Source of the DNA: Gimesia sp.
Lineage (GTDB): Bacteria; Planctomycetota; Planctomycetia; Planctomycetales; Planctomycetaceae
Assembly (NCBI RefSeq): GCF_048262075.1
Contig: NZ_JBLXFK010000011.1
Location: 55,920-119,919, forward strand
Direction of reading: 5' to 3'
DNA length: 64,000 nt
Part shown: piece by piece, positions 3,582-17,020 of the stretch
How the letters are laid out: every line of letters starts with the position of its first letter
Position numbering within the stretch: position 1 is the stretch's first letter
Translations under genes and position numbers: made by a program
Notes under the pieces: generated by a model
What the model was told of the DNA's origin: nothing
Databases searched by the model: none
What the model saw: only the letters and a program-made list of their open reading frames with translations

Positions 3582-4346
3582 GTGAGGCTGATTGTGCCCG
3601 CCATATCGAAACAAGATGGGGAGTCGCTGGGGCTGGAGTCACAGCAACTGCCACGTCACATCGCGATTATCATGGATGGGAATGGCCGCTGGGCTTCTCG
3701 ACGTGGATTTCCACGCATTGAGGGACATCGCCAGGGCGTCAACAGTGTGCGCACCGTTGTAGAAGAGTCCACACGGCTGGGAATTGAACAACTTACGCTA
3801 TATTGTCTCAGTAGCGAGAACTGGAAGCGACCGGCGCTGGAACTCAATCTGCTGATGCAGTTGTTGAAAAAATTCGTCATCGGTGAACGCGAAGAAATCA
3901 TGCGACAGAATATCCGCTTCACCACCATCGGTCGTCGCAGCGATCTGCCCCGGGATGTACTGGTTGAGGTTGATAAAACGATTCACGAGAGCCAGGAGAA
4001 TACCGGAATGCAGCTCTGCCTGGCATTGAACTATGGCAGCCGTTCGGAAATTGTGGACGCTGTCAAATCAATCGTGGCCGATGTCGAACAGGGAAACCTG
4101 AAACAGGAAGACATCAACGAAGAAGTGATCTCCGCGCATCTTTACACCTCTGGCATGCCTGACCCTGATCTGGTGATACGCACTGCGGGAGAAATGCGAG
4201 TCAGCAATTTTCTGCTCTGGCAGATCAGTTATGCCGAGTTATGGGTGACCGAAACTTACTGGCCTGACTTCAAAGTCGCCGATTACTGGCAGGCACTGCG
4301 TGACTTTGCCGCCCGTGACCGCCGTTTCGGTGGTTTGAAAGGATAA
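3582..4346 (+). CDS. uppS: Undecaprenyl diphosphate synthase (cis-prenyltransferase)
   Basis: HIAIIMDGNGRWA, SSENWKRP, PDLVIRTAGEMRVSNFLLWQISYAEL; GTG start. Confidence 0.95.
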   Translation: MRLIVPAISKQDGESLGLESQQLPRHIAIIMDGNGRWASRRGFPRIEGHRQGVNSVRTVVEESTRLGIEQLTLYCLSSENWKRPALELNLLMQLLKKFVIGEREEIMRQNIRFTTIGRRSDLPRDVLVEVDKTIHESQENTGMQLCLALNYGSRSEIVDAVKSIVADVEQGNLKQEDINEEVISAHLYTSGMPDPDLVIRTAGEMRVSNFLLWQISYAELWVTETYWPDFKVADYWQALRDFAARDRRFGGLKG

Positions 4347-4352
4347 CACAGC

Positions 4353-5264
4353 ATGCTGGGTTGGCGGTTACTCGTTTCCGTGATCCTGATTCCACTCCTG
4401 TTCGGGCTGTTTTATCTGGATCAGCGCGCGGGAACTTCTGCTCCCTATCTGTATGGTTTGTGTTGCCTGATTATCTTTCGTGGCTGCTGGGAATTAACTC
4501 AACTCTTAACCGTACGCAAGCTGAATCCCGGATACGCGATTACCAGTCTGCTTTCATTGTTGATCTGCACATTGGCCTGGCTCCCTTATTTCAGCAATAC
4601 TGATGCGGGCAGCCCACAAGAGAGCTCGCTGGCGCTGATGTCAGTCGGCTTTTCGATTTCCATTCTGTTGATCTTTCTGAAAGGCGCAATCCGCTTTCAG
4701 GAGCCGGGACAGAGTATGGAAAACATCGGTGCAGAGATTCTCTCTGTATCCTACCTGGGATTTCTACTGGCAATGCTGGCCGAACTACGGTGGGTGGCGG
4801 GACCCGAGACCGGTTACCTGGCTTTGGGGTCACTCATTATCAGCGCTAAGATGGGAGATATTGGCGGTTACACTTTTGGCCGCTTATGGGGGAAGAAAAA
4901 ACTGGTGCCGCGACTCAGTCCAGGAAAAACATGGGTGGGTGGTTTCGGTGCCATTTTCGGAGCCGCGCTTGGATCTCTGCTCTGGTTTCAGTTCACGCCT
5001 GCTTTATTTAATCCACTCTGGACTGGCAGCAGCTGGTTCTGGGCGATCCTGTTTGGTGCCATCATCGGCCTGGTCGGACTCGTGGGTGACCTGTGTGAAT
5101 CGCTCATCAAGCGGGATGTCGGGAAAAAGGACTCCGCAGAACTCCTGCCTGGATTTGGTGGCCTGCTCGATCTCCTGGACAGTCCGCTTTATGCCGGTCC
5201 CGTGGCGTTTGTACTCTGGAAATTACTGCCACTGGTGACTGTGGTTACTGAAGCCGGCAGTTGA
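4353..5264 (+). CDS. cdsA: Phosphatidate cytidylyltransferase
   Basis: Polytopic membrane protein; SPGKTWVG, GDLCESLIKRDVGKKDS..LPGFGGLLDLLDS; directly after uppS. Confidence 0.93.
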   Translation: MLGWRLLVSVILIPLLFGLFYLDQRAGTSAPYLYGLCCLIIFRGCWELTQLLTVRKLNPGYAITSLLSLLICTLAWLPYFSNTDAGSPQESSLALMSVGFSISILLIFLKGAIRFQEPGQSMENIGAEILSVSYLGFLLAMLAELRWVAGPETGYLALGSLIISAKMGDIGGYTFGRLWGKKKLVPRLSPGKTWVGGFGAIFGAALGSLLWFQFTPALFNPLWTGSSWFWAILFGAIIGLVGLVGDLCESLIKRDVGKKDSAELLPGFGGLLDLLDSPLYAGPVAFVLWKLLPLVTVVTEAGS

Positions 5265-5833
5265 TCGGTTCGCAGGTTGCACCAGCGTAAAGCAGGTAGA
5301 TGAGCTGCGATTACAGGCAGATAGGGATCGATGGATCCTACAACTGCCAATGATGCGACTGTAGACTCGGCGGGTAAATCAAGCGACTTCAGCAGGATCA
5401 GCTCATCCGCCGGCCAGGTCAATGTCACCCAGGCCGCGATGGAATCGCTGGTTACATCCCAGGAAGCAGGTAAGGGAGCGAAGTCCACCGAGGTCGTTGT
5501 TTGCAGGTAATGTTCCGCGCAGAGTATCGGAATCTGCTGTTGCTCCCACGCTTGTTCGGCGTCTTTCTGACTGGAGACCAAACAGGTCTCGTCAAGTAGC
5601 TGGCACAGTAGCCTTTCATTCAATTTCATCGCTGCAATGGCCAGCCAGTGTGACTCGGTGGCATCCAGTTGGTGAACGGCATGCCAGTGACGTACCAGAT
5701 CGGCAGCGCTGCCTCCTCCGCAAATCAACAGGGGGCTGCGATCTTGCCAATGTCTTAGAAACTCAGAGATCCTGTCTTTCAGATCGGGGAGATCGAACAG
5801 GCTGCCTCCGAGTTTTAAGACACTGATCTTCAT
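5189..5833 (-). CDS. Amino-acid-kinase-fold protein, MfnE/Orf21-like (methanofuran/H4MPT-linked C1 pathway)
   Basis: VLKLGGSL, ICGGG, SHWLAI, SWDVTSDSIA motifs. Start moved to ATG 5833 (MKISV) because the upstream extension overlaps hisG. Confidence 0.7.
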   Translation of the reverse strand: MKISVLKLGGSLFDLPDLKDRISEFLRHWQDRSPLLICGGGSAADLVRHWHAVHQLDATESHWLAIAAMKLNERLLCQLLDETCLVSSQKDAEQAWEQQQIPILCAEHYLQTTTSVDFAPLPASWDVTSDSIAAWVTLTWPADELILLKSLDLPAESTVASLAVVGSIDPYLPVIAAHLPALRWCNLRTDQLPASVTTVTSGSNFQSTNATGPA

Positions 5834-5886
5834 CCATTTCAACCCAGCGTAAAAAGCTGACTGCTTACTGTCTCTGCGCTCAAACT

Positions 5887-6765
5887 TCAGTCGATGATTT
5901 TGGAAATCTGATATTCCACGATGCCACACGCGCCCGCTGCTTTCAGTCTGGGGACGATCGTACGGACGACTGATTCTTCCATGATCGTACTGATAGCGAC
6001 CCAGTCCGGGTCAGAGAGTGAAGAAACAGTCGGCTTCTGTAATGCGGGGAGCAGATTAAGCACTTTCTCCAGATCGGTGCGGACCACATTCATCATCACG
6101 CAGACTTTACCTTCTGCAGCCAGGCATGATTCGAGCATCATCGCGATGTTCTCCAGCTTCTCGCGCTTCCAGGGATCTTCAAACGCCTGTTTGTTGGCGA
6201 TGAATCGGGTCGTGCTCTGCATCAGCTCTTCTACAATCCGCAGGTTATTGGCCCGCAGTGAAGAACCGGTTTCGGTGACTTCCACAATCGCGTCGGCCAG
6301 CTTGGGAGGTTTGACTTCGGTCGCGCCCCAGGAAAATTCAACAGTCGCTTTCACGCCATGCTTTTCCAGGTAACGTTCTGTCATGCCGACCACTTCAGTG
6401 GCAATGCGTTTACCTTCGAGGTCTTTGACTGACTGGATGGGTGAATCTTCCGGCACACAGAGGACCCAGCGGACTGGTCGGCGGCTGACTTTAGAGAACT
6501 GCAGTTCGCAGATTTCCTGTACGTCGGCGTTGGTTTCCAGAATCCAGTCATAACCGGTAATCCCAGCATCGAGGATTCCCTGATCGACATAGCGGGCCAT
6601 TTCCTGCGCCCGGATCAGCAGGCACTCGATTTCGTCATCATCAATCGTCGGGTAGTAGGAACGGGATGAAAATTTGATGACATAGCCGGCTCGTTTGAAG
6701 AGTTCAGCCGTCGATTCCTGTAAACTTCCCGCGGGGATACCGAGTTTTAAGACCTTGTCGGACAT
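5887..6765 (-). CDS. hisG: ATP phosphoribosyltransferase (long form)
   Basis: [36 protein letters not shown]-terminal regulatory domain. Confidence 0.95.
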
Positions 6766-8025: not shown

Positions 8026-9561
8026 TTAATCCTCTGTTTTCTGTTCAATCTTATAAGGCCCCAGAGCCGCGTCTCGCAGGAACCAGTCTTGCGGACGGTT
8101 CTTGAGCTGATCCGAATAAACTCGGATCGAACGTTCGTCCCAGAACTCGGGAATGGATGGGTCTTCCGGGATGCGTCCTTTGTCTTCGATTTCCTCCATC
8201 CAGGTATTCAGGGCTGAGGCCAGTCGCTGCTTGACATTCTGGTAGTCAGGGGAATCTGCCAGGTTATTCGTTTCCCAGGGATCCTTTTCTAAATCATACA
8301 GCTCTTCTGCAGGTCGAGTCTCCGCCATCAGCTTGAGAGGTGGTCCTGACAGTTCCCCCCTGCGATGCAGATCTCTTAACAGACCGATGATCGGGTAGGA
8401 CTTTTCCTTATAGCGGTTGATTTGCAGGAAGGGACGTTCAGGGTACTTGTTTCGCAGGTAACGATATTGCTTATCGCGCACCGTACGGATATGCAATACG
8501 GTTTCATCGCCTCGATCGCGTCCGCCAAACAGATACTCACGCGGAGGCTCTGCCTGTTGGCCCAGAAAGACTTGTCCCTGCATTTGTTCAGGCTTGGTAA
8601 TGTCGGCGACCGCCAGTGATGTGGCACTCAGATCGATGGAAGAAATCAGCTGCTCACTTTTTTGACCCCGCTGATAGTGTGCAGGTGCAGGCAGGTCCGC
8701 GTTGCCTTCGGGCCAGTAAATGATGAGGGGAATATGCAGGCCGCTGTCATAAGGCCATTGTTTACCGCGTGGCATTGCCCGGCCATGATCGCCCAGGAAA
8801 ACAACTATCGTGTTTTTCTCTAGCTTGTCCCGCTTCAGTAAATCCAGGATGAATGCGACCTTCTTATCAACAGCCATCACCGCGTTCAGATACTGAGCCC
8901 AGACTCCACGCGTGACGGCGTGATCGGGGTAGTAAGGCGGAATTTCAACTTTGGCAGGGTCCGCCTGGTAACCGATGTGTTCGTGAGACGTATTCCAGGC
9001 ACCGCCTCGATGAGTCTCTGAAAAGTTGATCTGGGCATAGAACGGCTGATGCTGTTTTAATTCGTTCCAGTCCTTGAGGTCAAAGGGTTGTTTGCCTTTG
9101 GGGTATGTGAAATTCCAGTCTGTCTTGCCGGTCCCTTTGTAGAACTTTGCCAGTTTGCGATCGTTGGTAAGGTTCTTGATATTCGCCGTCGTATAGCCGG
9201 CGGGACGGAACCAGTCAGTAATGACCCGCACGCCTTCAGGCAGAGGGTTTGTGCCCTCACGGTGCGAACGATGGTTTTGCGCATCGATGGCCATCGCATA
9301 CATGCCTGTCATGAATGAAGAACGACTGGTAGAGCAGACGGGAGTCACCGTGAATGCGTTCTGGAACAGCATTCCGTTTTTTGCCAATTGATCCAGGGTC
9401 GGCGTTTTAACTTCGGGAGTGCCATAACAGCCGAGTTCGGGACCCATGTCTTCGGCGATGATCCACAGAATATTAGGCCGCTGGTCGGCTGCCTGTACTG
9501 CTTCGGCTGGAGGGAAGGAAATGAATAAAAGAATTGCGAACGCGAAAAGAAATCGATGCAT
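8026..9561 (-). CDS. Sulfatase (formylglycine-dependent, S1 family), secreted
   Basis: Signal peptide, RPNILWIIAEDMG, CSTSR catalytic motif, GDHG, ELYDLEKDPWETNNLA. Confidence 0.92.
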   Translation of the reverse strand: MHRFLFAFAILLFISFPPAEAVQAADQRPNILWIIAEDMGPELGCYGTPEVKTPTLDQLAKNGMLFQNAFTVTPVCSTSRSSFMTGMYAMAIDAQNHRSHREGTNPLPEGVRVITDWFRPAGYTTANIKNLTNDRKLAKFYKGTGKTDWNFTYPKGKQPFDLKDWNELKQHQPFYAQINFSETHRGGAWNTSHEHIGYQADPAKVEIPPYYPDHAVTRGVWAQYLNAVMAVDKKVAFILDLLKRDKLEKNTIVVFLGDHGRAMPRGKQWPYDSGLHIPLIIYWPEGNADLPAPAHYQRGQKSEQLISSIDLSATSLAVADITKPEQMQGQVFLGQQAEPPREYLFGGRDRGDETVLHIRTVRDKQYRYLRNKYPERPFLQINRYKEKSYPIIGLLRDLHRRGELSGPPLKLMAETRPAEELYDLEKDPWETNNLADSPDYQNVKQRLASALNTWMEEIEDKGRIPEDPSIPEFWDERSIRVYSDQLKNRPQDWFLRDAALGPYKIEQKTED

Positions 9562-9625
9562 GAAAGTGACTCTTCACCAAAAGAGAAAATAATAGAGAGA
9601 TCGGAACCGGACTTTCCAACCTCTT

Positions 9626-9654
9626 ATCATCGGCGATGCAACGAGCATTGTCAA
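9626..9654 (-). promoter_or_regulatory. Sigma70-like promoter for sulfatase gene
   Basis: Minus strand TTGACA-17 nt-GATGAT about 65 nt upstream of the sulfatase ATG. Confidence 0.5.
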
Positions 9655-9712
9655 TCAATGTCAGGTTGCTGTGGTCGTATTCCGGCTTGCGTTCATTCGT
9701 TCCGATTTTGAT

Positions 9713-12367
9713 TCAGGCGCCGCTATAATCGCGCTGTTTAAAACTCATTTTCTGGAAGTCATCTTTAAATGGAGAAGCTCCCTGTTTTTCAATGTTGGCT
9801 TTCCCCAGTTTATAGCGATAACTGTGTGTGATGGGGTCGGGCACGCGATGCACCAGGCTGTTACCCATTCGTTTTCCATACAGAAACATGCCAAATAACA
9901 GGCCCGGTTTGACAGCCGTTGTCAGGATGGCGACGGCTTTCATTTCTCCGCTGCCAACGCGAATGTGACCCTCTTTCATTAATTGCGTGAAGGAAAAACT
10001 CTTGGGTTCAATATGCTGGAAGCCACTCTGCTGAACCAGAATGTCATCGCTCCACAATCGTAGATAATCACCGCTCTCAATTCCGAGCGGGCCTGCATCG
10101 TCCGGATGAATCTCTACAAACGCATCAGGCCAGCGATCCGTGAGATATTTTTCCCGTAACGTATCGAAGCCTGACTGCCAGGTTTCGTTAATTCGACCTA
10201 CGGTAAACCAGAATTCACCCTGATCACGCTGGGGCGAAATACGTTCGTAATAGTCTACGAATAACTCCCACGGACTTTGAATCAAAAGTGCTTTGCCCGA
10301 GTGCGTATTGAAATGCGTCAACCATTTAGGATGGGAAGTTGGTCCTTGTGGCGTTCCCAGGTTGAGTTCTGGATCATGCAGGCGTCTTGTGCCAACCAAT
10401 TCGTTTTCTTCGAGTCGGATCGGCGTCTGAATGCCGGTCGTTCCCAGTTCGCGCAGTGCTTCATGACCTTTGACTCCCTCCTGTTTGGCTTTCCAGACGA
10501 GCGGATAATAGTCGAGAATGTTCCCACGGCTGAAGCGGGCTGCTTCTTCAAATACGGTATTCGCGTCCTTCCAGTCAAAGCCTTTGAATCCCATTTTTTG
10601 TGCGAACTGGCTGATGGCCCACCAGTCCGGTTTGGCTTCTCCGGGCGCATCACAGAATTGGGAATACAGACGCAAACGCCGTTCGCCGTTACAGCGGGCG
10701 CCGTCATGTTCTCCCCACTGGGCGGCTGGCAGGACGATGTCTGACAATTCGGTATTGAGTGGTTCGACCGGATAAATATCGGAATCCACCAGTACCATCC
10801 CGCCACTGTCTACGCGATCGATGAGCGTCTGGATGATTTCTTCACGATTGCGACTCGAAACTTGATGCGGGTTCTCCGTCGTTTGTTGACGAAACCTCTT
10901 CAGTAGTTCCTGACTGGCGGTCATTGCGCCCAGCCATGTGGTGCCAATCACCCAGGCAAAGCGGACTTGCCCCGCGGTGACCCAGCGGTCCAGGTCGAGT
11001 TCGAGTCTACGGCGGCCGGGAAGTTTCTCTGGCGATTTGGTGCGCGGATAAGAAGCCGCTCCAATCCAGCCACGTTGGTGTCCTCCCAGACGACTGACGA
11101 CGCGGCCCGGTCGATTGCCGGCACCACATAATAATGCCAGTGCAGCGAAGCTGGTTGTGTTGGTGTAATTGTTACTCCAGTAATTCCCTTTTTCGAAACC
11201 GAAGCTGGTACGCGGCCGTTTGCCGCCGCCACCGGAAATCATTTGAGCCGCTTGTTGAATTTTCTCTGGCGGGATGCCGGTGATTTTGGCTGCCGATTCC
11301 AGTTCCGCGGGGGCGTAGTTCAGTAACCAGTCCTTATATTTTTCAAAGGACAAGGCACCGATGCTGCCCCAGGTGGTTCTCCACTGCCAAGGCGTATTGC
11401 GGGTTCCCCGTCCAAAACCGCTGTCGATCTCCCATTCGTCGGCGATCCATTTCGAGATGAACTCTTTGTCTTCCCAATTGTTTTCCAGAATGATCCGATT
11501 CATTGCCAGATGTAGTAGTGTATCGGTGCCGGGATTGATTTGCAGAAACAGGCCGCCGTTTTTTTCCGCATACGCGACTCCCGCCGTCCGTCGCGGCAGG
11601 ACCATGATGATTTTGTTGTCCTGGTTCATCATCCATTCGGTAAACAGAACCGTTTTTGATTCGTAAGGATCGGTTCCTGAAATGAACAATACTTCCGCTT
11701 CGGACCAGTCCTGATAACTGGCGCTGAACGTTTTAATGCCGGCGTCATCAAGGCCCGCCGTATCGTTGCCCATACTTGGTTTGTCATGCACAGCATAAGC
11801 GGGGGTTTGAATGGCTTCGAATGCGAGTTTGGTGATGGCGTACGTGTTTTCGAAAAACTCGTACGAATACGTTTTCATCGCCCACGCCGATTCCCCATAC
11901 TTCTTCAGCACATGCTGACTGATGGCGGCCATCACATCGAGTGCCAGATCCCAGCTAACGCGTTGCAGCTTGCCGTTAATTCTGATTTGAGGATACAGCA
12001 GCCGATCTTTGGTGGGGGCTGAGGGGTGATAACATTTCTTGGCCAGAACACCGCCTCGAATCGAGTGGTTTCCATTGGGATTCACGACGGTCGCGTCGAA
12101 GTCGGGCAGCACGGCGACGTGCTGATCTTGACCGTCGAGTTGCACTATCGCATGCTGATTCGGACTGATCCAGGGCCCAAACTGCTCACCCGGAAAATCG
12201 ACTCCCAGCGCATTCTCCTTTGCTTGAGGCTTGCCTTCCTTGCCGAGCGGCCAAGTGTAGACTTTGTATCCACAGCCGACAATGCAGTATGCACAGACGG
12301 TCGTGCTGACTTTGGCATCAACCGGGGGCAGGGGGATGGCGTCATTCGTTTGCTGGTAATCTGTCAT
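9713..12367 (-). CDS. idrA: DMSO-reductase-family molybdoenzyme large subunit, AioA/IdrA family; most likely iodate reductase IdrA-like
   Basis: CAYCIVGC (C-X2-C-X3-C) plus NHSIRGG ([3Fe-4S] type), YSYEFFENTYAITKL, C-terminal molybdopterin-binding domain, no own signal peptide; next to Rieske and peroxidase genes. Confidence 0.8.
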   Translation of the reverse strand: MTDYQQTNDAIPLPPVDAKVSTTVCAYCIVGCGYKVYTWPLGKEGKPQAKENALGVDFPGEQFGPWISPNQHAIVQLDGQDQHVAVLPDFDATVVNPNGNHSIRGGVLAKKCYHPSAPTKDRLLYPQIRINGKLQRVSWDLALDVMAAISQHVLKKYGESAWAMKTYSYEFFENTYAITKLAFEAIQTPAYAVHDKPSMGNDTAGLDDAGIKTFSASYQDWSEAEVLFISGTDPYESKTVLFTEWMMNQDNKIIMVLPRRTAGVAYAEKNGGLFLQINPGTDTLLHLAMNRIILENNWEDKEFISKWIADEWEIDSGFGRGTRNTPWQWRTTWGSIGALSFEKYKDWLLNYAPAELESAAKITGIPPEKIQQAAQMISGGGGKRPRTSFGFEKGNYWSNNYTNTTSFAALALLCGAGNRPGRVVSRLGGHQRGWIGAASYPRTKSPEKLPGRRRLELDLDRWVTAGQVRFAWVIGTTWLGAMTASQELLKRFRQQTTENPHQVSSRNREEIIQTLIDRVDSGGMVLVDSDIYPVEPLNTELSDIVLPAAQWGEHDGARCNGERRLRLYSQFCDAPGEAKPDWWAISQFAQKMGFKGFDWKDANTVFEEAARFSRGNILDYYPLVWKAKQEGVKGHEALRELGTTGIQTPIRLEENELVGTRRLHDPELNLGTPQGPTSHPKWLTHFNTHSGKALLIQSPWELFVDYYERISPQRDQGEFWFTVGRINETWQSGFDTLREKYLTDRWPDAFVEIHPDDAGPLGIESGDYLRLWSDDILVQQSGFQHIEPKSFSFTQLMKEGHIRVGSGEMKAVAILTTAVKPGLLFGMFLYGKRMGNSLVHRVPDPITHSYRYKLGKANIEKQGASPFKDDFQKMSFKQRDYSGA

Positions 12368-12433
12368 GAGATTTCCGATGAGTGAATGTTGTCGATGGTG
12401 CTGTTCATGTGAAGCAGCGGCTGTGTGAATCTT

Positions 12434-12991
12434 CTAGGCAGGCGCCTGATGGTTATTTGCATAGCCGAATATTAATCCTTGAATACCGACGGCGTAGATC
12501 TCATCGCCTTCGGTTTCGAGCAGGATTTGAGGCAAGCCGGCTGTAGCATGTCCTGAAATGACCATGCCGTGTCGTGTTAGATCAAAGGTCGTCCAGTGCA
12601 GATAACAGGGGCCTGCGATACATGCTTTGCCGTCAAAGTTTTCATCGAGCCTTGCGCCCTGATGCGTACACAGACTGTTAAACGCGACGACGTTGCTCTC
12701 GGGCCCGACCCCTCCGCCGGCGGGTTCACTCAGACGAATCAGAAAATTCTCTGCATTCACATGATCCCAGGGGTAGCGAAACTTCTGAGGCTGGTTTGAT
12801 TTGAGTTGGCTCAAGTTTCCGATTTTTTTCCGGGGATACTCGCTGCGCAGGACTTGTGATTCTCCTAAAGTGGGGAGTGTCAACGTCAGCAGGGCGGCGC
12901 CTGAGCCAAACAGGAAGTGACGACGACTTAATTGGCCGAGCTCACCCGAGCAGCCTGCGGAGGGTGTCTCACATTCAGTCTGTTTTTTCAC
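12434..12991 (-). CDS. idrB: Tat-exported Rieske [2Fe-2S] small subunit (AioB/IdrB-like)
   Basis: SRRHFLF twin-arginine signal; CTH...CYLH Rieske ligands; TTFDLTRHGMVISGHAT. Likely start GTG 12991 with AAGGA upstream (ORF track extends to 13024). Confidence 0.8.
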   Translation of the reverse strand: MKKQTECETPSAGCSGELGQLSRRHFLFGSGAALLTLTLPTLGESQVLRSEYPRKKIGNLSQLKSNQPQKFRYPWDHVNAENFLIRLSEPAGGGVGPESNVVAFNSLCTHQGARLDENFDGKACIAGPCYLHWTTFDLTRHGMVISGHATAGLPQILLETEGDEIYAVGIQGLIFGYANNHQAPA

Positions 12992-15617
12992 GAGAATGAT
13001 TTCCTTCCGATTTAGGATCGGCACTTTGGTATTCAGGCAGTGAGGGACGTTTCATCGGAATCGGTTTGCCCGATAAGGACTTGAGGAACGCCAATAAGTC
13101 GCTTCGTTCTAACTCATCCAGACCCAGTGGGCGAATCAAACTACTTTGATTCGCAGTTGAGCCGCCGCCCGTATTATAAAAATCGATGACTTCTTCCAGC
13201 GTCCCGAACAAGCCGTTGTGCATATAGGGAGCAGTATGCGTGAGACCGCGAAGCGAAGGCGTGCGAAATTTGCCACGATCTGCTTCGCGTTTGGTGACGT
13301 AATATAAGCCGTCATCAGTGAAAGCGCTGCGATAGATATTTTGGGGCACACCTTTCGCAGCGAGTTCATAGCGGAACGTAATCTGCTTGATCGGGCTGGT
13401 CAGAAAGCCTGGATTCTGCGGAACCCCGATCGCGTAATAATTGTCATCGCTGGCCAGGGGGCCGTTGTGACAGGAAATACAGCCTGCTTTACCCTGAAAC
13501 AGATGATAACCCCGCTTGGCGGCCGGTGAGAGCGCGCTGGGGTCGCCTTTCAGAAAACGGTCAAAGGGAGTGTTATTGCTGACGATGGTTCTCTGAAATG
13601 AAGCGACGGATCGTAAAGCGTCATCCCAGCGAGGCAGGTCCGTTCCATAAATGGATTGAAACTGTTTGACATAGTCTGGTATCTGGGCAAGCCGTTCTTC
13701 ACCCAGAGTCGGGTCAAGATTACTGGCGACCGCGCCCGTCCAGGCACCGTTGTTTTGACTCTCGATACTGGTTTTGGCACCATCCCAGTTCAGCTTTCCA
13801 TAGTATCCCACGTTGAGAATGGTTTGCGAGTTCCTCCAGTGACTGGTTCCCGGTCCGCCCATGGAAATCGGCGTTTGGATCGTCCAGCCAGTATTGACCG
13901 GGTGACAACTGTTGCAGCTCATCGAACTGTCAGCCGACATTCGATGGTCAAAATAGAGCTGTCGGCCCAGTTCAATCTTTTCAGGAGTCAACGGGTTATC
14001 GGCGGGAGTGGGCACTGCAGGCAGTAAAGCTAGCGGAGGGAACGTTCGTGAGTTGTCAGCTTGTGCTGGCGTTGGTTTATTGGTTTGCTCCTGTGCCGCT
14101 GTTTCTCTACGCGGCAATAACTGATACGCGGGCAACTCGGGCCGTTCAACTTCGACGGATTTACTGCTCAAACTTTTCAGGAAGGCGACCAGGGCTTGCT
14201 GTTCCGGTCCTGTGAGATTCAATGGTTTCAGATCGGCTGTCTGCTGCGGACCGCCGCCTGCGTTATAAAAGGAGATGACCTCTTCCAGTGTTTTCAAGCT
14301 GCCGTTATGCATATAAGGAGCAGTTTTGGCGACTTCATACAGAGAGGGGGTACGAAACTTACCACGATCTTGTGTGTGGAAGGTCATTGATTCCCGACCG
14401 GGGTCCTGTTTCCGATTGCGGTAGTTGGGAGTTCCCAGGATGCGGAAGAAGCGGCGAAACGTGACCGCGCGTTCCGGGTCAGCCAGCAGATCGACTTTTT
14501 TAGGGACATCGAGGGCATGAAATCTCTGATCGGTGAGCGTCGGCTCTTGATGACAGTTCACACAACCTGCTTTGCCGCGAAACAGTACCAGCCCCCATTG
14601 TGCTTGATTCGAAAGGGCAGCGGTTTGTCCTGCCTGAAACGCGTCGTAAGGTGTCTGTCGGGAATTGAGTGTCCTGACATAAGCGGTTAACGCATTGAGG
14701 ATGCGACCAAACCGTGGTGCGCCACCATAGGCTTTTTCAAACAGTTCGCGATACGCGGGGACTTGTACCATGCGTTCGACCAGCAGCCTGCCATCACTGG
14801 CCATGAAATGGGCTTCAGTGAGATGGTCGCGGACCACGCTGGGTAAGTCGCCGATGCGTCCATCCAGAAAATATTCCTTCTGATAGCGGAGGTTTGAGAG
14901 TGAAGGCGTATTGCGAAACAGTTTCGTGGAAGGAAAACCTTTACTGAGCGGGCTGCCGTCAGTCCAGCTTATATCGGGTTGATGGCAGTTGGCGCAACTG
15001 AGCGAATTATTGGCTGAGAGGCGTTTATCGAAAAAAAGATAACGTCCAAGTGTGATCTCGGCTGCAGAAGGTACACTGAGACCGCCTGCTTTCAATGGAG
15101 CAGTATTGGATTCAACTGGCAAAGCGACTTCAATTGATTTTTGTTGTGTGGAGGAGTGATTGAAGGGAGACGCTGTCGCCGGTTTTCCCAGTGAGTCGAG
15201 GTAATTCACAATCAGATCCAGATCGTCGGCACTCAGCGAGTCTGCGAATGACTGCAACATGACACCCGCGGGATACTCATTTTCGGTTCCCTCAGGGGCG
15301 ATGAACGCATCAGGATTTTGAATCGACTCGCGAATATATTGTTTCGCGGTCTGATTTTTTCTGCGAGTTGCTGCTGTGATTCCCAGGCGAGATAGATCAG
15401 GGCCGACTTCACCATCGGCACCGGGCACACCGGGAATGATGTGGCAGCCGGCACAGCCTCCCAGATTGAAAGCATTAATGACGGCAAAAAGATTTTGTTT
15501 CGCTTTTGAATCCGACTTTTTTGAGTTTGATTGTGCGAAACCAGTTTCGAATCCCGAGAGGCAAAAAAATAAACACCAGATCATAACGGGTAGAATCGTT
15601 CTTTGAGGAATCATCAA
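12975..15617 (-). CDS. Pentaheme fusion: class I cytochrome c plus two di-heme cytochrome c peroxidase/MauG-like modules (IdrP1-P2 fusion-like)
   Basis: Signal peptide; five CXXCH motifs (CAGCH, CANCH, CVNCH, CNSCH, CISCH); two copies each of LG..L.FD.R.S, GKFRTPSL and APYMHNG. Confidence 0.85.
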   Translation of the reverse strand: MMIPQRTILPVMIWCLFFCLSGFETGFAQSNSKKSDSKAKQNLFAVINAFNLGGCAGCHIIPGVPGADGEVGPDLSRLGITAATRRKNQTAKQYIRESIQNPDAFIAPEGTENEYPAGVMLQSFADSLSADDLDLIVNYLDSLGKPATASPFNHSSTQQKSIEVALPVESNTAPLKAGGLSVPSAAEITLGRYLFFDKRLSANNSLSCANCHQPDISWTDGSPLSKGFPSTKLFRNTPSLSNLRYQKEYFLDGRIGDLPSVVRDHLTEAHFMASDGRLLVERMVQVPAYRELFEKAYGGAPRFGRILNALTAYVRTLNSRQTPYDAFQAGQTAALSNQAQWGLVLFRGKAGCVNCHQEPTLTDQRFHALDVPKKVDLLADPERAVTFRRFFRILGTPNYRNRKQDPGRESMTFHTQDRGKFRTPSLYEVAKTAPYMHNGSLKTLEEVISFYNAGGGPQQTADLKPLNLTGPEQQALVAFLKSLSSKSVEVERPELPAYQLLPRRETAAQEQTNKPTPAQADNSRTFPPLALLPAVPTPADNPLTPEKIELGRQLYFDHRMSADSSMSCNSCHPVNTGWTIQTPISMGGPGTSHWRNSQTILNVGYYGKLNWDGAKTSIESQNNGAWTGAVASNLDPTLGEERLAQIPDYVKQFQSIYGTDLPRWDDALRSVASFQRTIVSNNTPFDRFLKGDPSALSPAAKRGYHLFQGKAGCISCHNGPLASDDNYYAIGVPQNPGFLTSPIKQITFRYELAAKGVPQNIYRSAFTDDGLYYVTKREADRGKFRTPSLRGLTHTAPYMHNGLFGTLEEVIDFYNTGGGSTANQSSLIRPLGLDELERSDLLAFLKSLSGKPIPMKRPSLPEYQSADPKSEGNHSREKTD

Positions 15618-15885
15618 TACCCTGTTTCATTCGCGAGTTGTGCTGGTTTCGATTTTCAGAAAAACTTCAGTTTGAGTATAGGCCATGCGAATGGGAAATG
15701 TAATACAGGGTAGAAGACTCTCTTCAGTAACCGGCAGCATGAGCCCCACTGAGGACAGATGACCAGTTATGGTTATAAGAAACGACGTGGGAAAAACAGG
15801 ATATCGAGCATTCAATTCTGGCGAGATTTGCAAACAGACTACATTGACTCCCGGTTCAGTTTATCACCGGAGCGTGTACCAAAGA

Positions 15886-15921
15886 AAAACGTCCTGAACC
15901 AGGATTGGTCCAGGACGTTTT
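15886..15921 (-). terminator. Hairpin terminator downstream of tRNA-Gln
   Basis: AAAACGTCCTG...CAGGACGTTTT inverted repeat immediately 3' of the tRNA. Confidence 0.75.
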
Positions 15922-15925
15922 AAAA

Positions 15926-15996
15926 TTGCCCGACTAGGATTCGAACCTAGACTAAGTGAGTCAGAGTCACTCGTGCTACCGTTACACTATCAGGCA
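15926..15996 (-). tRNA. tRNA-Gln (anticodon CTG), CCA not encoded
   Basis: Reverse complement folds: TGCCTGA/TCGGGCA acceptor stem, AGTGA-CT-CTG-AC-TCACT anticodon arm, CTAGG-TTCGAAT-CCTAG T-arm. Confidence 0.95.
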
Positions 15997-16219
15997 ATAG
16001 ATGGTGCATGATATTACGTTGATAAGCTTAGTGGATAGCATCACTTGCAGCTTTCTCAGGCCATTATAGGGAATTTTTCTTCTACGCCAAGTCGATCAGG
16101 GAGAGAATTTTCTATTCTTTTTGGTCTGTTTCACACTTTTAAGCTGTTTGCGAGTATGACAGTATATAAACAGGGTCGGTTCATACGAAAGGGCCTGTCA
16201 TCGATTACTTTTCCCGGGA

Positions 16220-17020
16220 ATGGGGGCTTTAATGCGTTATTGGATTTTGCGAGCGGGGCTCTGTTTTTTCGTCTGCCTGGTCTCTTCTCGAGGGATCATT
16301 CAGGCTGACGAACCGAAAGCGGATCAGACAACTGCCCGTTTACAGGCCAAATTGAAAGAGACGATCCAGCAACTGTCCGAGCAAATTACACAGACTCCAG
16401 GAGTGTCGTCCCTCTATTCCCGACGCGGCGATGCTCATTTCTTTAAGGGAGATTTCAAAGCAGCAGTCGCCGATTACAACAAAATGATCGAACTGAACCC
16501 CTCAATCTCAGCCTCTCACTGGAGACGGGGGATCGCCTGTTACTATGCGAAGCAGTATACAGAAGCAGCGAAGCAATTCGAAATCTATCATTCGTTCGAT
16601 AACGTCGATCGCGAGAACGGCATCTGGCGGTTCTTTTCCCAGTACAAGGCTAAAGGTGCCGCTGCAGCGCAACAGGGGTTGCTCAAATATGAAAAGGATG
16701 ATCGGGAACCCTTTCCCGATCTGTATCGGATGTTTCAGGGCAAGACGACTCCGGAAACCGTAGTAAAAAATATTGAGACTGCCGAGATTGATGCGCAGGA
16801 ACGCAGTAAACGCTATTTTTATGCGTACCTTTATATCGGCTTAAACGAATCGTTGCATGGTCGTCAGGAGCAGGCACGAAGTTTTCTCACTAAGTCTGTT
16901 GAGAATGACTGGGGGCCGGCTGCCGGTTTTGGCCCTAATTATATGTGGCATACCGGACGACTCGAGTTACAATTGCTTTCGGCACCAAACGAAAAACCGG
17001 AAGCAAAGCCAGAAAAATAA
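16220..17020 (+). CDS. Secreted tetratricopeptide-repeat protein (NlpI-like)
   Basis: Signal peptide; TPR patterns (RRGDAHFFKGDFKAAVADYNKMIELNP); YFYAYLYIG. Confidence 0.7.
   Translation: MGALMRYWILRAGLCFFVCLVSSRGIIQADEPKADQTTARLQAKLKETIQQLSEQITQTPGVSSLYSRRGDAHFFKGDFKAAVADYNKMIELNPSISASHWRRGIACYYAKQYTEAAKQFEIYHSFDNVDRENGIWRFFSQYKAKGAAAAQQGLLKYEKDDREPFPDLYRMFQGKTTPETVVKNIETAEIDAQERSKRYFYAYLYIGLNESLHGRQEQARSFLTKSVENDWGPAAGFGPNYMWHTGRLELQLLSAPNEKPEAKPEK

Follow-up and report, generated by a model that had tools for sequence, protein, structure and literature searches.

The window analysed here is the whole 64,000-nt stretch of contig NZ_JBLXFK010000011.1 of the marine planctomycete Gimesia sp., and coordinates throughout refer to it. 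On its minus strand, a long fused gene is followed directly downstream by idrB and then by idrA, which encode the small and the catalytic subunit of a molybdoenzyme of the iodate reductase (Idr) type. In the single polypeptide of the fused gene, a predicted Sec signal and a monohaem cytochrome c are followed by two di-haem modules, the first of the IdrP2 type and the second of the IdrP1 type. An earlier sequence-only reading of the window had described "IdrP1 and IdrP2 equivalents fused". Both equivalents are present, each within its own Idr clade, and the order has to be corrected, as P2 precedes P1. The same reading stated that characterised idr clusters encode the two proteins separately, which is true in Azonexus NCP973 and Denitromonas IR-12.

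Counted from a TTG, the uninterrupted open reading frame (ORF) of the fused gene has 880 amino acids. The ATG at 15614, the codon directly after the TTG, is the likelier start, and an identical database entry (P0004) has 879 amino acids, which matches this ATG. The calculated mass is ~93.5 kDa for the mature apoprotein and roughly 96-97 kDa with five haems. Five CxxCH sites are found in the ORF, namely CAGCH at residue 55, CANCH at 208, CVNCH at 352, CNSCH at 568 and CISCH at 713, while Pfam assigns two PF03150 (CCP_MauG) stretches and one PF00034 domain (residues 54-143, E 9.6e-15). These data bear out the earlier description of two complete di-haem modules of the CcP/MauG kind in one ORF. 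The proposed LG..L.FD.R.S start and APYMHNG end motifs are found in both modules, the Pro/Gln/Thr linker lies between them, and the suggested content of five haems agrees with the sites counted, the fifth being supplied by the N-terminal cytochrome c. The span of 12975-15050 given for the fusion covers both modules but stops short of the N-terminal signal peptide and cytochrome c. The features and their coordinates are collected in Table 1.

Table 1. Features of the idr locus in the window, with positions, strand and basis of each assignment.
Feature	Position	Strand	Basis
Fused gene: Sec signal, monohaem cytochrome c, IdrP2-type module, linker, IdrP1-type module	12975..15617	-	ORF, translation, Pfam
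Predicted Sec signal peptide, residues 1-29, MMIPQRTILPVMIWCLFFCLSGFETGFAQ	15531..15617	-	Read off the hydrophobic N-terminal sequence by eye
Class I cytochrome c domain, residues ~45-145, CAGCH at 55	15183..15485	-	PF00034
Module 1, IdrP2-type di-haem, residues ~176-502, CANCH 208 and CVNCH 352	14112..15092	-	Pfam, alignment, tree
Pro/Gln/Thr-rich linker RRETAAQEQTNKPTPAQADNSRT, residues 503-525	14043..14111	-	Sequence
Module 2, IdrP1-type di-haem, residues ~526-865, CNSCH 568 and CISCH 713	13023..14042	-	Pfam, alignment, tree
idrB, Rieske [2Fe-2S] small subunit, Tat signal (RRHFL), CTH-X18-CYLH	12434..13024	-	Pfam, NCBIfam, sequence
idrA, molybdenum bis-pyranopterin guanine dinucleotide (Mo-bisPGD) / [3Fe-4S] catalytic subunit of the IdrA clade, 884 aa	9713..12367	-	Pfam, NCBIfam, tree
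Inserted cassette between a sulfatase gene (8026-9561) and a tetratricopeptide repeat (TPR) gene (16220-17020)	9562..16219	.	Comparison with congeners

The published order of the idr genes is idrP2, idrP1, idrB and idrA (PMC10989891), and the consecutive accession numbers of Azoarcus DN11 are consistent with it (PMC10149662). When each module was aligned separately to the Azonexus proteins, as the sequence-only reading had proposed, module 1 was 43% identical to P2, the product of the distal gene, and 38% to P1, while module 2 was 52% identical to P1, the product of the idrB-adjacent gene, and 41% to P2. Between the two modules the identity is 42%, and each is closer to its Azonexus counterpart than to the other module. 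In 84 of 84 loci, the distal gene or module matches module 1 best and the proximal one matches module 2 best. A module tree was built with careful IQ-TREE settings (LG+C20+F+G4, 94 rows), with supports given as ultrafast bootstrap (UFBoot) and Shimodaira-Hasegawa-like approximate likelihood ratio (SH-aLRT) values. All N-terminal modules and promoter-distal genes form an IdrP2 clade (100/99) that contains module 1, and an IdrP1 clade (100/93.7), containing module 2, unites all C-terminal modules with all idrB-adjacent genes. The genome's own two other CcPs fall outside both clades. Sequence comparison thus supports the modules as orthologues of the two Idr-associated di-haem proteins, neither copies of each other nor generic peroxidases. 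Further, module 2 opens with PPLALLPAVPTPADNP, whose motif PPLxxLPxVPxPADNP is that of the mature N-terminus of free IdrP1; the counterpart in the free IdrP1 of Azonexus, PPLAPLPPVPIPADNP, stands directly after the signal peptide. Since module 2 begins at the mature N-terminus of free IdrP1, the linker occupies the place of the IdrP1 signal peptide.

The frame is also kept beyond the window. In a sister Gimesia species (L006, the same as L001; represented by a Gimesia metagenome-assembled genome (MAG) and a TARA scaffold), the protein is 89-91% identical, and no gap codon interrupts it. Between the window and the sister species, synonymous and non-synonymous changes number 93 and 26 in one module, 93 and 18 in the other, and 7 and 15 in the linker. 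The modules are under purifying selection, and the linker is relaxed. In a search of 5.8 billion proteins, ~55 database clusters of ~790-965 aa were seen to cover 88-100% of the fused protein at 51-89% identity, and dozens more clusters, of 700-770 aa, hold both modules and no cytochrome c. A five-haem ORF of the same kind occurs in seven further species-level loci. The fusion is not a sequencing artefact, an outcome that the sequence-only reading had named as one that would overturn it.

The downstream genes place the locus among the idr clusters. According to Reyes-Umana et al. (PMC8692401), such a cluster is recognised by an IdrA of the right clade and by conserved synteny of the peroxidase genes upstream of idrB-idrA. 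In the window, both di-haem units lie upstream in the right order, as modules of one ORF, and the start of idrB is probably near 12991, which gives a 17-nt overlap with the fused gene. The window IdrA is 55% identical to that of Azonexus NCP973 and 57% to that of Denitromonas IR-12; the IdrA of the Gimesia MAG, found in the scan of species-representative genomes, is 96% identical to it. A tblastn search against plasmids gave a bimodal result, with 55-56% identity to Azonexus and Thiothrix and 48% to a Vibrio, against 27-30% to every true AioA. The AioA chains of the PDB score ~300 bits against the window IdrA. With the AioA of NT-26, Thermus and Hydrogenophaga taken as outgroup, both the FastTree and the IQ-TREE phylogenies unite the 84 Idr-type sequences in one clade (100*), and the window is nested inside it. 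The segments KTYSY-EFFENTY, HDKP, GGHQRGW and VIGTTW are common to the window and the validated IdrA, where AioA has FDHGGAGGGxENTW, HNRPAYNSE and GGHQEGY as counterparts. An IdrA is expected to carry CX2CX3C with a downstream Ser, and an IdrB the Rieske motif CXHX18CX2H and a Tat signal (PMC10149662). All of these are found: CAYCIVGC as the [3Fe-4S] motif, the Ser in HSIRGG, the Rieske motif as CTH-X18-CYLH and the RRHFL of the Tat signal; PF18465 is matched as well. By the published criteria, applied to sequence, the locus is an idr cluster. That its substrate is iodate would be an extension by analogy, as iodate reduction has been validated for proteobacterial members only (PMC13455634, PMC10149662, PMC8692401).

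Automatic annotation gives another name to these genes. The NCBIfam model TIGR02693 (arsenite_ox_L) reaches 446 bits, above its cut-off of 359, TIGR02694 reaches 99.4, above 95.65, and the close homologues are named 'arsenate reductase (azurin) large subunit' in the databases. The same 'arsenate reductase (azurin)' label is carried by the iodate reductase of Azonexus hydrophilus NCP973, a validated iodate-reducing strain (PMC13455634), and therefore the arsenite oxidase label does not discriminate. The idr genes of this strain (L003) are located on a 319-kb plasmid, with TnsA-like and IS21 genes a few kb downstream.

Loci were surveyed in species-representative genomes, taking the best 80 of 573 relatives, and 84 loci were compared in all. 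The order P2-P1-B-A holds in essentially all 84. Separate P2 and P1 are the majority form, seen in Denitromonas, in Azonexus and in the cultured planctomycete Stieleria marina, among others, and in such unfused clusters the two genes lie ~10 nt apart or overlap. A cytochrome c joined to P2, with P1 separate, is found in Anaerolineales, Promineifilaceae and Acidimicrobiia. In Caldilineaceae and other Chloroflexota (L014, L015, L019, L021), P2 is flanked by a cytochrome c on either side (four CxxCH, ~700 aa), again with a separate P1. The five-haem form, cytochrome c::P2::P1, is present in Gimesia, other Planctomycetaceae, Gemmataceae, Isosphaeraceae and Planctomycetia, and a four-haem form, P2::P1, in Phycisphaerae, Rokubacteria GWA2_73_35, a Planctomycetaceae MAG and Myxococcota. 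When the database proteins were clustered at 50%, each architecture collapsed to ~1 representative. The fusion is common in public data and not confined to the window genome.

On the IdrA tree (IQ-TREE), where 69 Idr-type loci have a readable architecture, the loci bearing a cytochrome c form one clade of 14 loci (100*), and the five-haem loci form one clade inside it with a support of 75. The four-haem fusions are each embedded among relatives with unfused genes. The fused state requires 5 changes on this tree and 5-6 changes on the module trees. A single origin of all fusions was tried as a constraint, and one clade of all fused loci was rejected (difference in log-likelihood, ΔlnL, 699; p of the approximately unbiased test, p-AU, 8e-69). 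The fusion groups had been defined after the first tree was viewed, which weakens the formal p-values and leaves the pattern unaffected. By these trees, the P2::P1 fusion arose independently about five times. The linkers, of 20-45 aa, are low in complexity and unrelated between lineages.

The fused arrangement varies further at the margins of the survey. Outside the 80-locus set, an Elusimicrobiota P2::P1 stands in the order P-A-B and another fusion in P-B-A, while one proteobacterial fusion has no idrBA alongside. In the Elusimicrobiota case (L089, GCA_043827405.1), the gene of the Mo subunit comes next after the P2::P1 fusion, and a 177-aa ORF after that, possibly in the order P-A-B; six WD40::P2::P1 paralogues lie on the same 195-kb contig. 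The proteobacterial fusion (L090, P0114, on a 3.7-Mb contig) is of the P2::P1 type and adjoins a DUF1329/DUF1302/MMPL/BNR gene set, with no idrB or idrA alongside; the same set lies upstream of a fusion-B-A cluster in L091. In L081 (Planctomycetota) and L084 (Verrucomicrobia), the P2 module is C-terminal in open frames of 1100-1400 aa and P1 lies within frames of 700-800 aa, with large N-terminal extensions on both. Four Dehalococcoidia loci (L062, L063, L064, L068) have a lone P1-type gene ~30 nt upstream of idrA, with no P2 and no Rieske gene between.

In surveys, a fused gene of this kind can be mistaken for the absence of one idrP gene, so that the operon looks incomplete. An 'incomplete operon (idrP1,B,A)' has been reported in the Methylomirabilota MAG GCA_001771285.1 (PMC10989891). 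In Candidatus Rokubacteria GWA2_73_35 (L044), a four-haem P2::P1 fusion lies at 4210-6408, and the reported case may be a fused gene counted as one, although its identity with the L044 assembly could not be confirmed.

Within the genus, the fused gene is present in 2 of 22 genomes, the window genome and the Gimesia MAG G021, and the remaining ones have only a 349-aa housekeeping CcP. The sulfatase and TPR genes that flank the cassette are separated by 6.7-7.6 kb in the two idr-positive genomes. Nine idr-negative congeners were checked; the distance is 0.9-2.4 kb in seven of them, and in the other two, G003 and G004, the two genes are far apart on the chromosome. Because the flanking genes are close together in seven idr-negative congeners, the three-gene cassette is an insertion. 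It contains the fused gene, idrB and idrA only, and no regulator, moaA or separate cytochrome gene was found within it. Horizontal mobility has been proposed for idr (PMC8692401), and the insertion, as judged from genome comparison, fits this proposal.

The sequence-only reading had also suggested that the structure be predicted. AlphaFold2, run on the whole 880-residue chain with a 79-sequence alignment, returned a confident model with a mean pLDDT (per-residue confidence) of 88.4 and a pTM (predicted template modelling score) of 0.88. Low confidence is confined to the termini, the loops of the cytochrome c domain and residues ~501-520 in the linker region, and pLDDT is below 55 across residues 1-40, which include the predicted signal peptide. 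A pTM of 0.88 across three domains implies that, in the predicted model, the relative arrangement of the modules is confidently fixed. In Foldseek searches, each module matches di-haem peroxidases, with TMt 0.85-0.88 for MacA and the Shewanella CcP and ~0.71 for MauG; the trihaem YhjA (PDB 9qdt) is matched at TMt 0.63, and no solved chain spans more than one module.

In the bacterial CcPs (bCcP; P. nautica/P. aeruginosa numbering), Met275 is the ligand of the high-potential His/Met haem, His71 is the distal residue, and Gln104 and Glu114 are catalytic. In MauG, Tyr294 is an axial ligand and Trp93 lies between the haems. Residues were mapped by sequence alignment onto the numbering of P. nautica CcP (1NML), which recovers Cys51/Cys54/His55, His71, Asn79, Trp94, Gln104, Glu114, Thr256/Pro258 and Met275, and were counted over 65 P2 and 75 P1 sequences. 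The position of Met275 is occupied by Tyr in 65/65 P2 and 75/75 P1, with Tyr451 and Tyr814 in the window aligned with MauG Tyr294. At the His71 position, 63/65 P2 and 61/75 P1 have Tyr, and the window has Phe in module 1 and Gly in module 2. At Gln104, P2 has Leu or Val and P1 has Gln in 75/75, represented in the window by Val and Gln621, respectively. At Glu114, P2 has Phe or Thr and P1 has Ala; the window has Phe and Ala. Trp94 is kept in almost all P2 and P1, and the window has Leu in module 1 and Trp611 in module 2. Judged by two CxxCH sites, the fold and a Ca2+ site (Asn79, Thr256 and Pro258 are all present), the modules agree with the bCcPs. The classical residue set of Met275, His71, Gln104 and Glu114 is not complete in either of them. 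With both modules summed, the NCBIfam model of the MbnH family, TIGR04039, reaches 392.8, above its cut-off of 362.85. In sequence terms, the IdrP family is MauG/MbnH-like at the second haem, and neither paralogue has the full bCcP active site. The Tyr-for-Met pattern applies to all Idr systems examined and not just to the fusion.

Module 1 of both Gimesia species has Leu at the inter-haem Trp94 position (residue 251, ~14862-14864), where 60/65 P2 have Trp, and Phe at the His71 position. Tyr at the Met275 position is also seen in the two CcPs that the genome encodes elsewhere (contigs C4 and C12).

Taken with the architecture, orthology, purifying selection, recurrent fusion, placement in the IdrA clade and insertion of the cassette, it is probable that the ORF is a genuine, selected gene fusion in an iodate-reductase-type operon of Gimesia and that its product is a pentahaem IdrP2-IdrP1 pair serving IdrAB. 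The phylogeny shows how it arose. IdrP2 first acquired a class I cytochrome c domain at its N-terminus, a state common to the Chloroflexota and Actinomycetota relatives. Subsequently, in a planctomycete-centred lineage, the adjacent idrP1 came to be read through in frame, with a flexible linker of ~23 aa in place of its signal peptide. The product would be exported by Sec as a periplasmic pentahaem protein, in which the two di-haem modules are probably packed together as a fixed 1:1 pair. Such a pair could be a covalent version of an IdrP2-IdrP1 heterodimer, itself descended from the homodimeric di-haem peroxidase fold. The protein would serve, and associate with, the Tat-exported IdrAB molybdoenzyme encoded directly downstream. 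The built-in cytochrome c may be the entry point for electrons from the respiratory chain, feeding four peroxidase-type haems, and these may dispose of the oxidant that arises from iodate reduction by IdrAB. In both published models this oxidant is H2O2 (PMC8692401). Hypoiodous acid is suggested here as speculation, because of the predicted MauG-like haem ligation.

The sequence-only reading had proposed that P1 and P2 act as an obligate heterodimer. This is strengthened by the approximately five independent fusions, by the pTM of 0.88 and by the published co-migration of IdrA, IdrB, IdrP1 and IdrP2 in an active native band, as recounted from Yamazaki 2020 in a later paper (PMC10149662), and we regard it as an inference. 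Several points weigh against the proposal as a whole. Adjacent, co-translated genes fuse easily, and a fusion alone is no proof of an obligate heterodimer. The packing of the modules in the manner of a bCcP dimer would depend on the pTM, an indirect indicator. With the classical peroxidase residues missing from both modules, H2O2 reduction of the bCcP type is not assured. The iodate substrate is extrapolated from proteobacterial enzymes at 55-57% identity to planctomycete clusters known from sequence. That the fused cytochrome c replaced a separate donor gene is only weakly supported: a small cytochrome c ORF downstream of idrA occurs in 0/10 loci of the fused clade and 13/61 other loci, a difference too weak to decide, and BLAST of the N-terminal cytochrome c domain against the Azonexus cytochrome gave no match at 1e-3.

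Other explanations can be weighed against the same data. It is extremely unlikely that an error of assembly or sequencing has made one ORF out of two genes by masking a stop codon or frameshift between them, since the independent assembly of the sister species shows the same frame amid many synonymous differences, and the ~55 full-length clusters come from many projects, with the seven further five-haem loci beside them. That the two modules are a recent internal tandem duplication of one peroxidase, and not an IdrP2-IdrP1 fusion, can practically be dismissed. Their 42% identity to each other would be in keeping with a duplication, but each is closer to its orthologue in unfused clusters, the P2 and P1 clades are strongly supported, and holding the Gimesia modules together was rejected (ΔlnL 193.5, p-AU 5e-48). 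An arsenite oxidase (AioBA) with an unrelated peroxidase alongside, as the automatic annotation would have it, is very unlikely. The scores above the NCBIfam cut-offs and the names of the homologues speak for it, but that label is shared with a validated iodate reductase; the AioA assignment was rejected on the identity of 27-30% to all AioA as against 55-57% to IdrA, on the clade split (100*) and on the replaced segments (DHGGAGGG...ENTW, of which DHGGAGGG is proximal to the active site, and HNRPAYNSE), and peroxidase genes are absent from the true aio loci examined.

The remaining alternatives concern what the fusion means and not whether it exists. The fusion might be a near-neutral by-product of gene adjacency, with modules that act independently or pair between two polypeptides. 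One lost stop codon would be enough where P2 and P1 are ~10 nt apart or overlap, most lineages keep the two genes separate, and the linkers are long, variable and poorly predicted. Yet five independent fusions have been retained under purifying selection and always in the same order, the pTM implies a confident relative placement, and P1 and P2 are reported, in the later account, to co-migrate with IdrAB (PMC10149662); this explanation is hence considered improbable. A more serious doubt is whether the IdrP modules are H2O2-detoxifying peroxidases at all. They may instead be integral to the reductase, either as MauG-like high-valent haem units or as simple subunits for electron transfer, a possibility that is rather unlikely. 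It draws on the invariant Tyr at the Met275/MauG Tyr294 position in both paralogues, on the loss of Glu114 from both clades and of Gln104 from P2, on the summed TIGR04039 score and on the 2024 literature, in which the functions of IdrP1 and IdrP2 'remain unclear' (PMC11445184). On the other side, the fold is closest to the bCcPs, with MauG less close, and the residue mapping depends on sequence alignment. A bolder version is put forward tentatively, and we would sooner doubt it than accept it: IdrP2-IdrP1 would be a MauG-type (His/Tyr) heterodimeric four-haem unit, a stoichiometric subunit of iodate reductase that is wired to the respiratory chain by cytochrome c and reaches a high-valent state with the oxidant of IdrAB. 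This oxidant could be hypoiodous acid, in which case the unit would be the missing two-electron step from hypoiodous acid to iodide. Such a subunit would be in keeping with the repeated fusion, with the universal change from Met to Tyr and with the way in which the residues lost from P2 and from P1 complement each other, none of which proves it.

Whichever chemistry applies, the reading of the ORF as a selected IdrP2-IdrP1 fusion has several consequences. The Idr system and its occurrence in Planctomycetaceae were already known (PMC8692401); what is new is the fused IdrP2-IdrP1 with its cytochrome c. The sequence-only reading knew of no description of this architecture, and neither the P2-P1 fusion nor the added cytochrome c was found in the idr literature searched, where Yamazaki et al. 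2020 was known through later papers only. The repeated origin, about five times, of a head-to-tail fusion provides comparative evidence for a 1:1 IdrP2-IdrP1 pair. For expression, spectroscopy and structural studies, the fusion also offers a ready single-chain construct with a built-in cytochrome for electron entry. With Tyr universal at the position of the Met ligand, the name 'peroxidase' becomes questionable for the entire IdrP family. Further, Idr-type clusters are extended to planctomycete groups beyond the Planctomycetaceae of the earlier study (PMC8692401), namely Gimesia, Gemmataceae and Isosphaeraceae, all of them annotated as arsenite oxidase.

Compared with known systems, the locus resembles AioBA (NT-26, Alcaligenes faecalis, Thermus) in having a Mo-bisPGD / [3Fe-4S] large subunit and a Tat-exported Rieske small subunit, encoded small then large. 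It differs in its low identity of 27-30%, its separate clade, its other active-site-proximal segments and the peroxidase genes that aio loci lack. With MauG, MbnH and BthA, the modules share the di-haem CcP fold, the Tyr at the MauG Tyr294 position in both modules and, when summed, a TIGR04039 score above the cut-off. In contrast, the equivalent of Glu113 is absent from the window, module 1 is without the equivalents of Gln103 and Trp93 (the Trp is kept in module 2), and no partner gene of the MauG/MbnH type (mauA/mauB for preMADH, or mbnP) was found within the inserted cassette. YhjA-type enzymes are membrane-anchored quinol peroxidases. The trihaem YhjA of E. coli (PDB 9qdt) likewise has an extra c-type haem domain N-terminal to the di-haem CcP fold, but with a single peroxidase module and no Idr context.

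Closer still are the four-haem P2::P1 fusions of Rokubacteria GWA2_73_35, Phycisphaerae, Myxococcota and Planctomycetaceae MAGs, together with the WD40::P2::P1 proteins of Elusimicrobiota. They have the same head-to-tail order of P2 and then P1, and most adjoin idrB/idrA-like genes; however, they are of independent origin and without a cytochrome c domain, some bear WD40 propellers, some stand in the order P-A-B, and one has no idrBA neighbour. From the characterised idrP2-P1-B-A clusters of Pseudomonas sp. SCT, Denitromonas iodatirespirans IR-12, Azoarcus sp. DN11 and Azonexus hydrophilus NCP973, the window differs in its single polypeptide, its extra N-terminal cytochrome c, the linker in place of the P1 signal peptide and its planctomycete host, whose cassette is without separate cytochrome c, moaA and sigma-54 regulator genes. 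With these clusters it nevertheless shares the Tyr at the Met275 position, the residues Asn79, Thr256 and Pro258, and orthologous di-haem modules placed in the same order, directly upstream of idrB-idrA.

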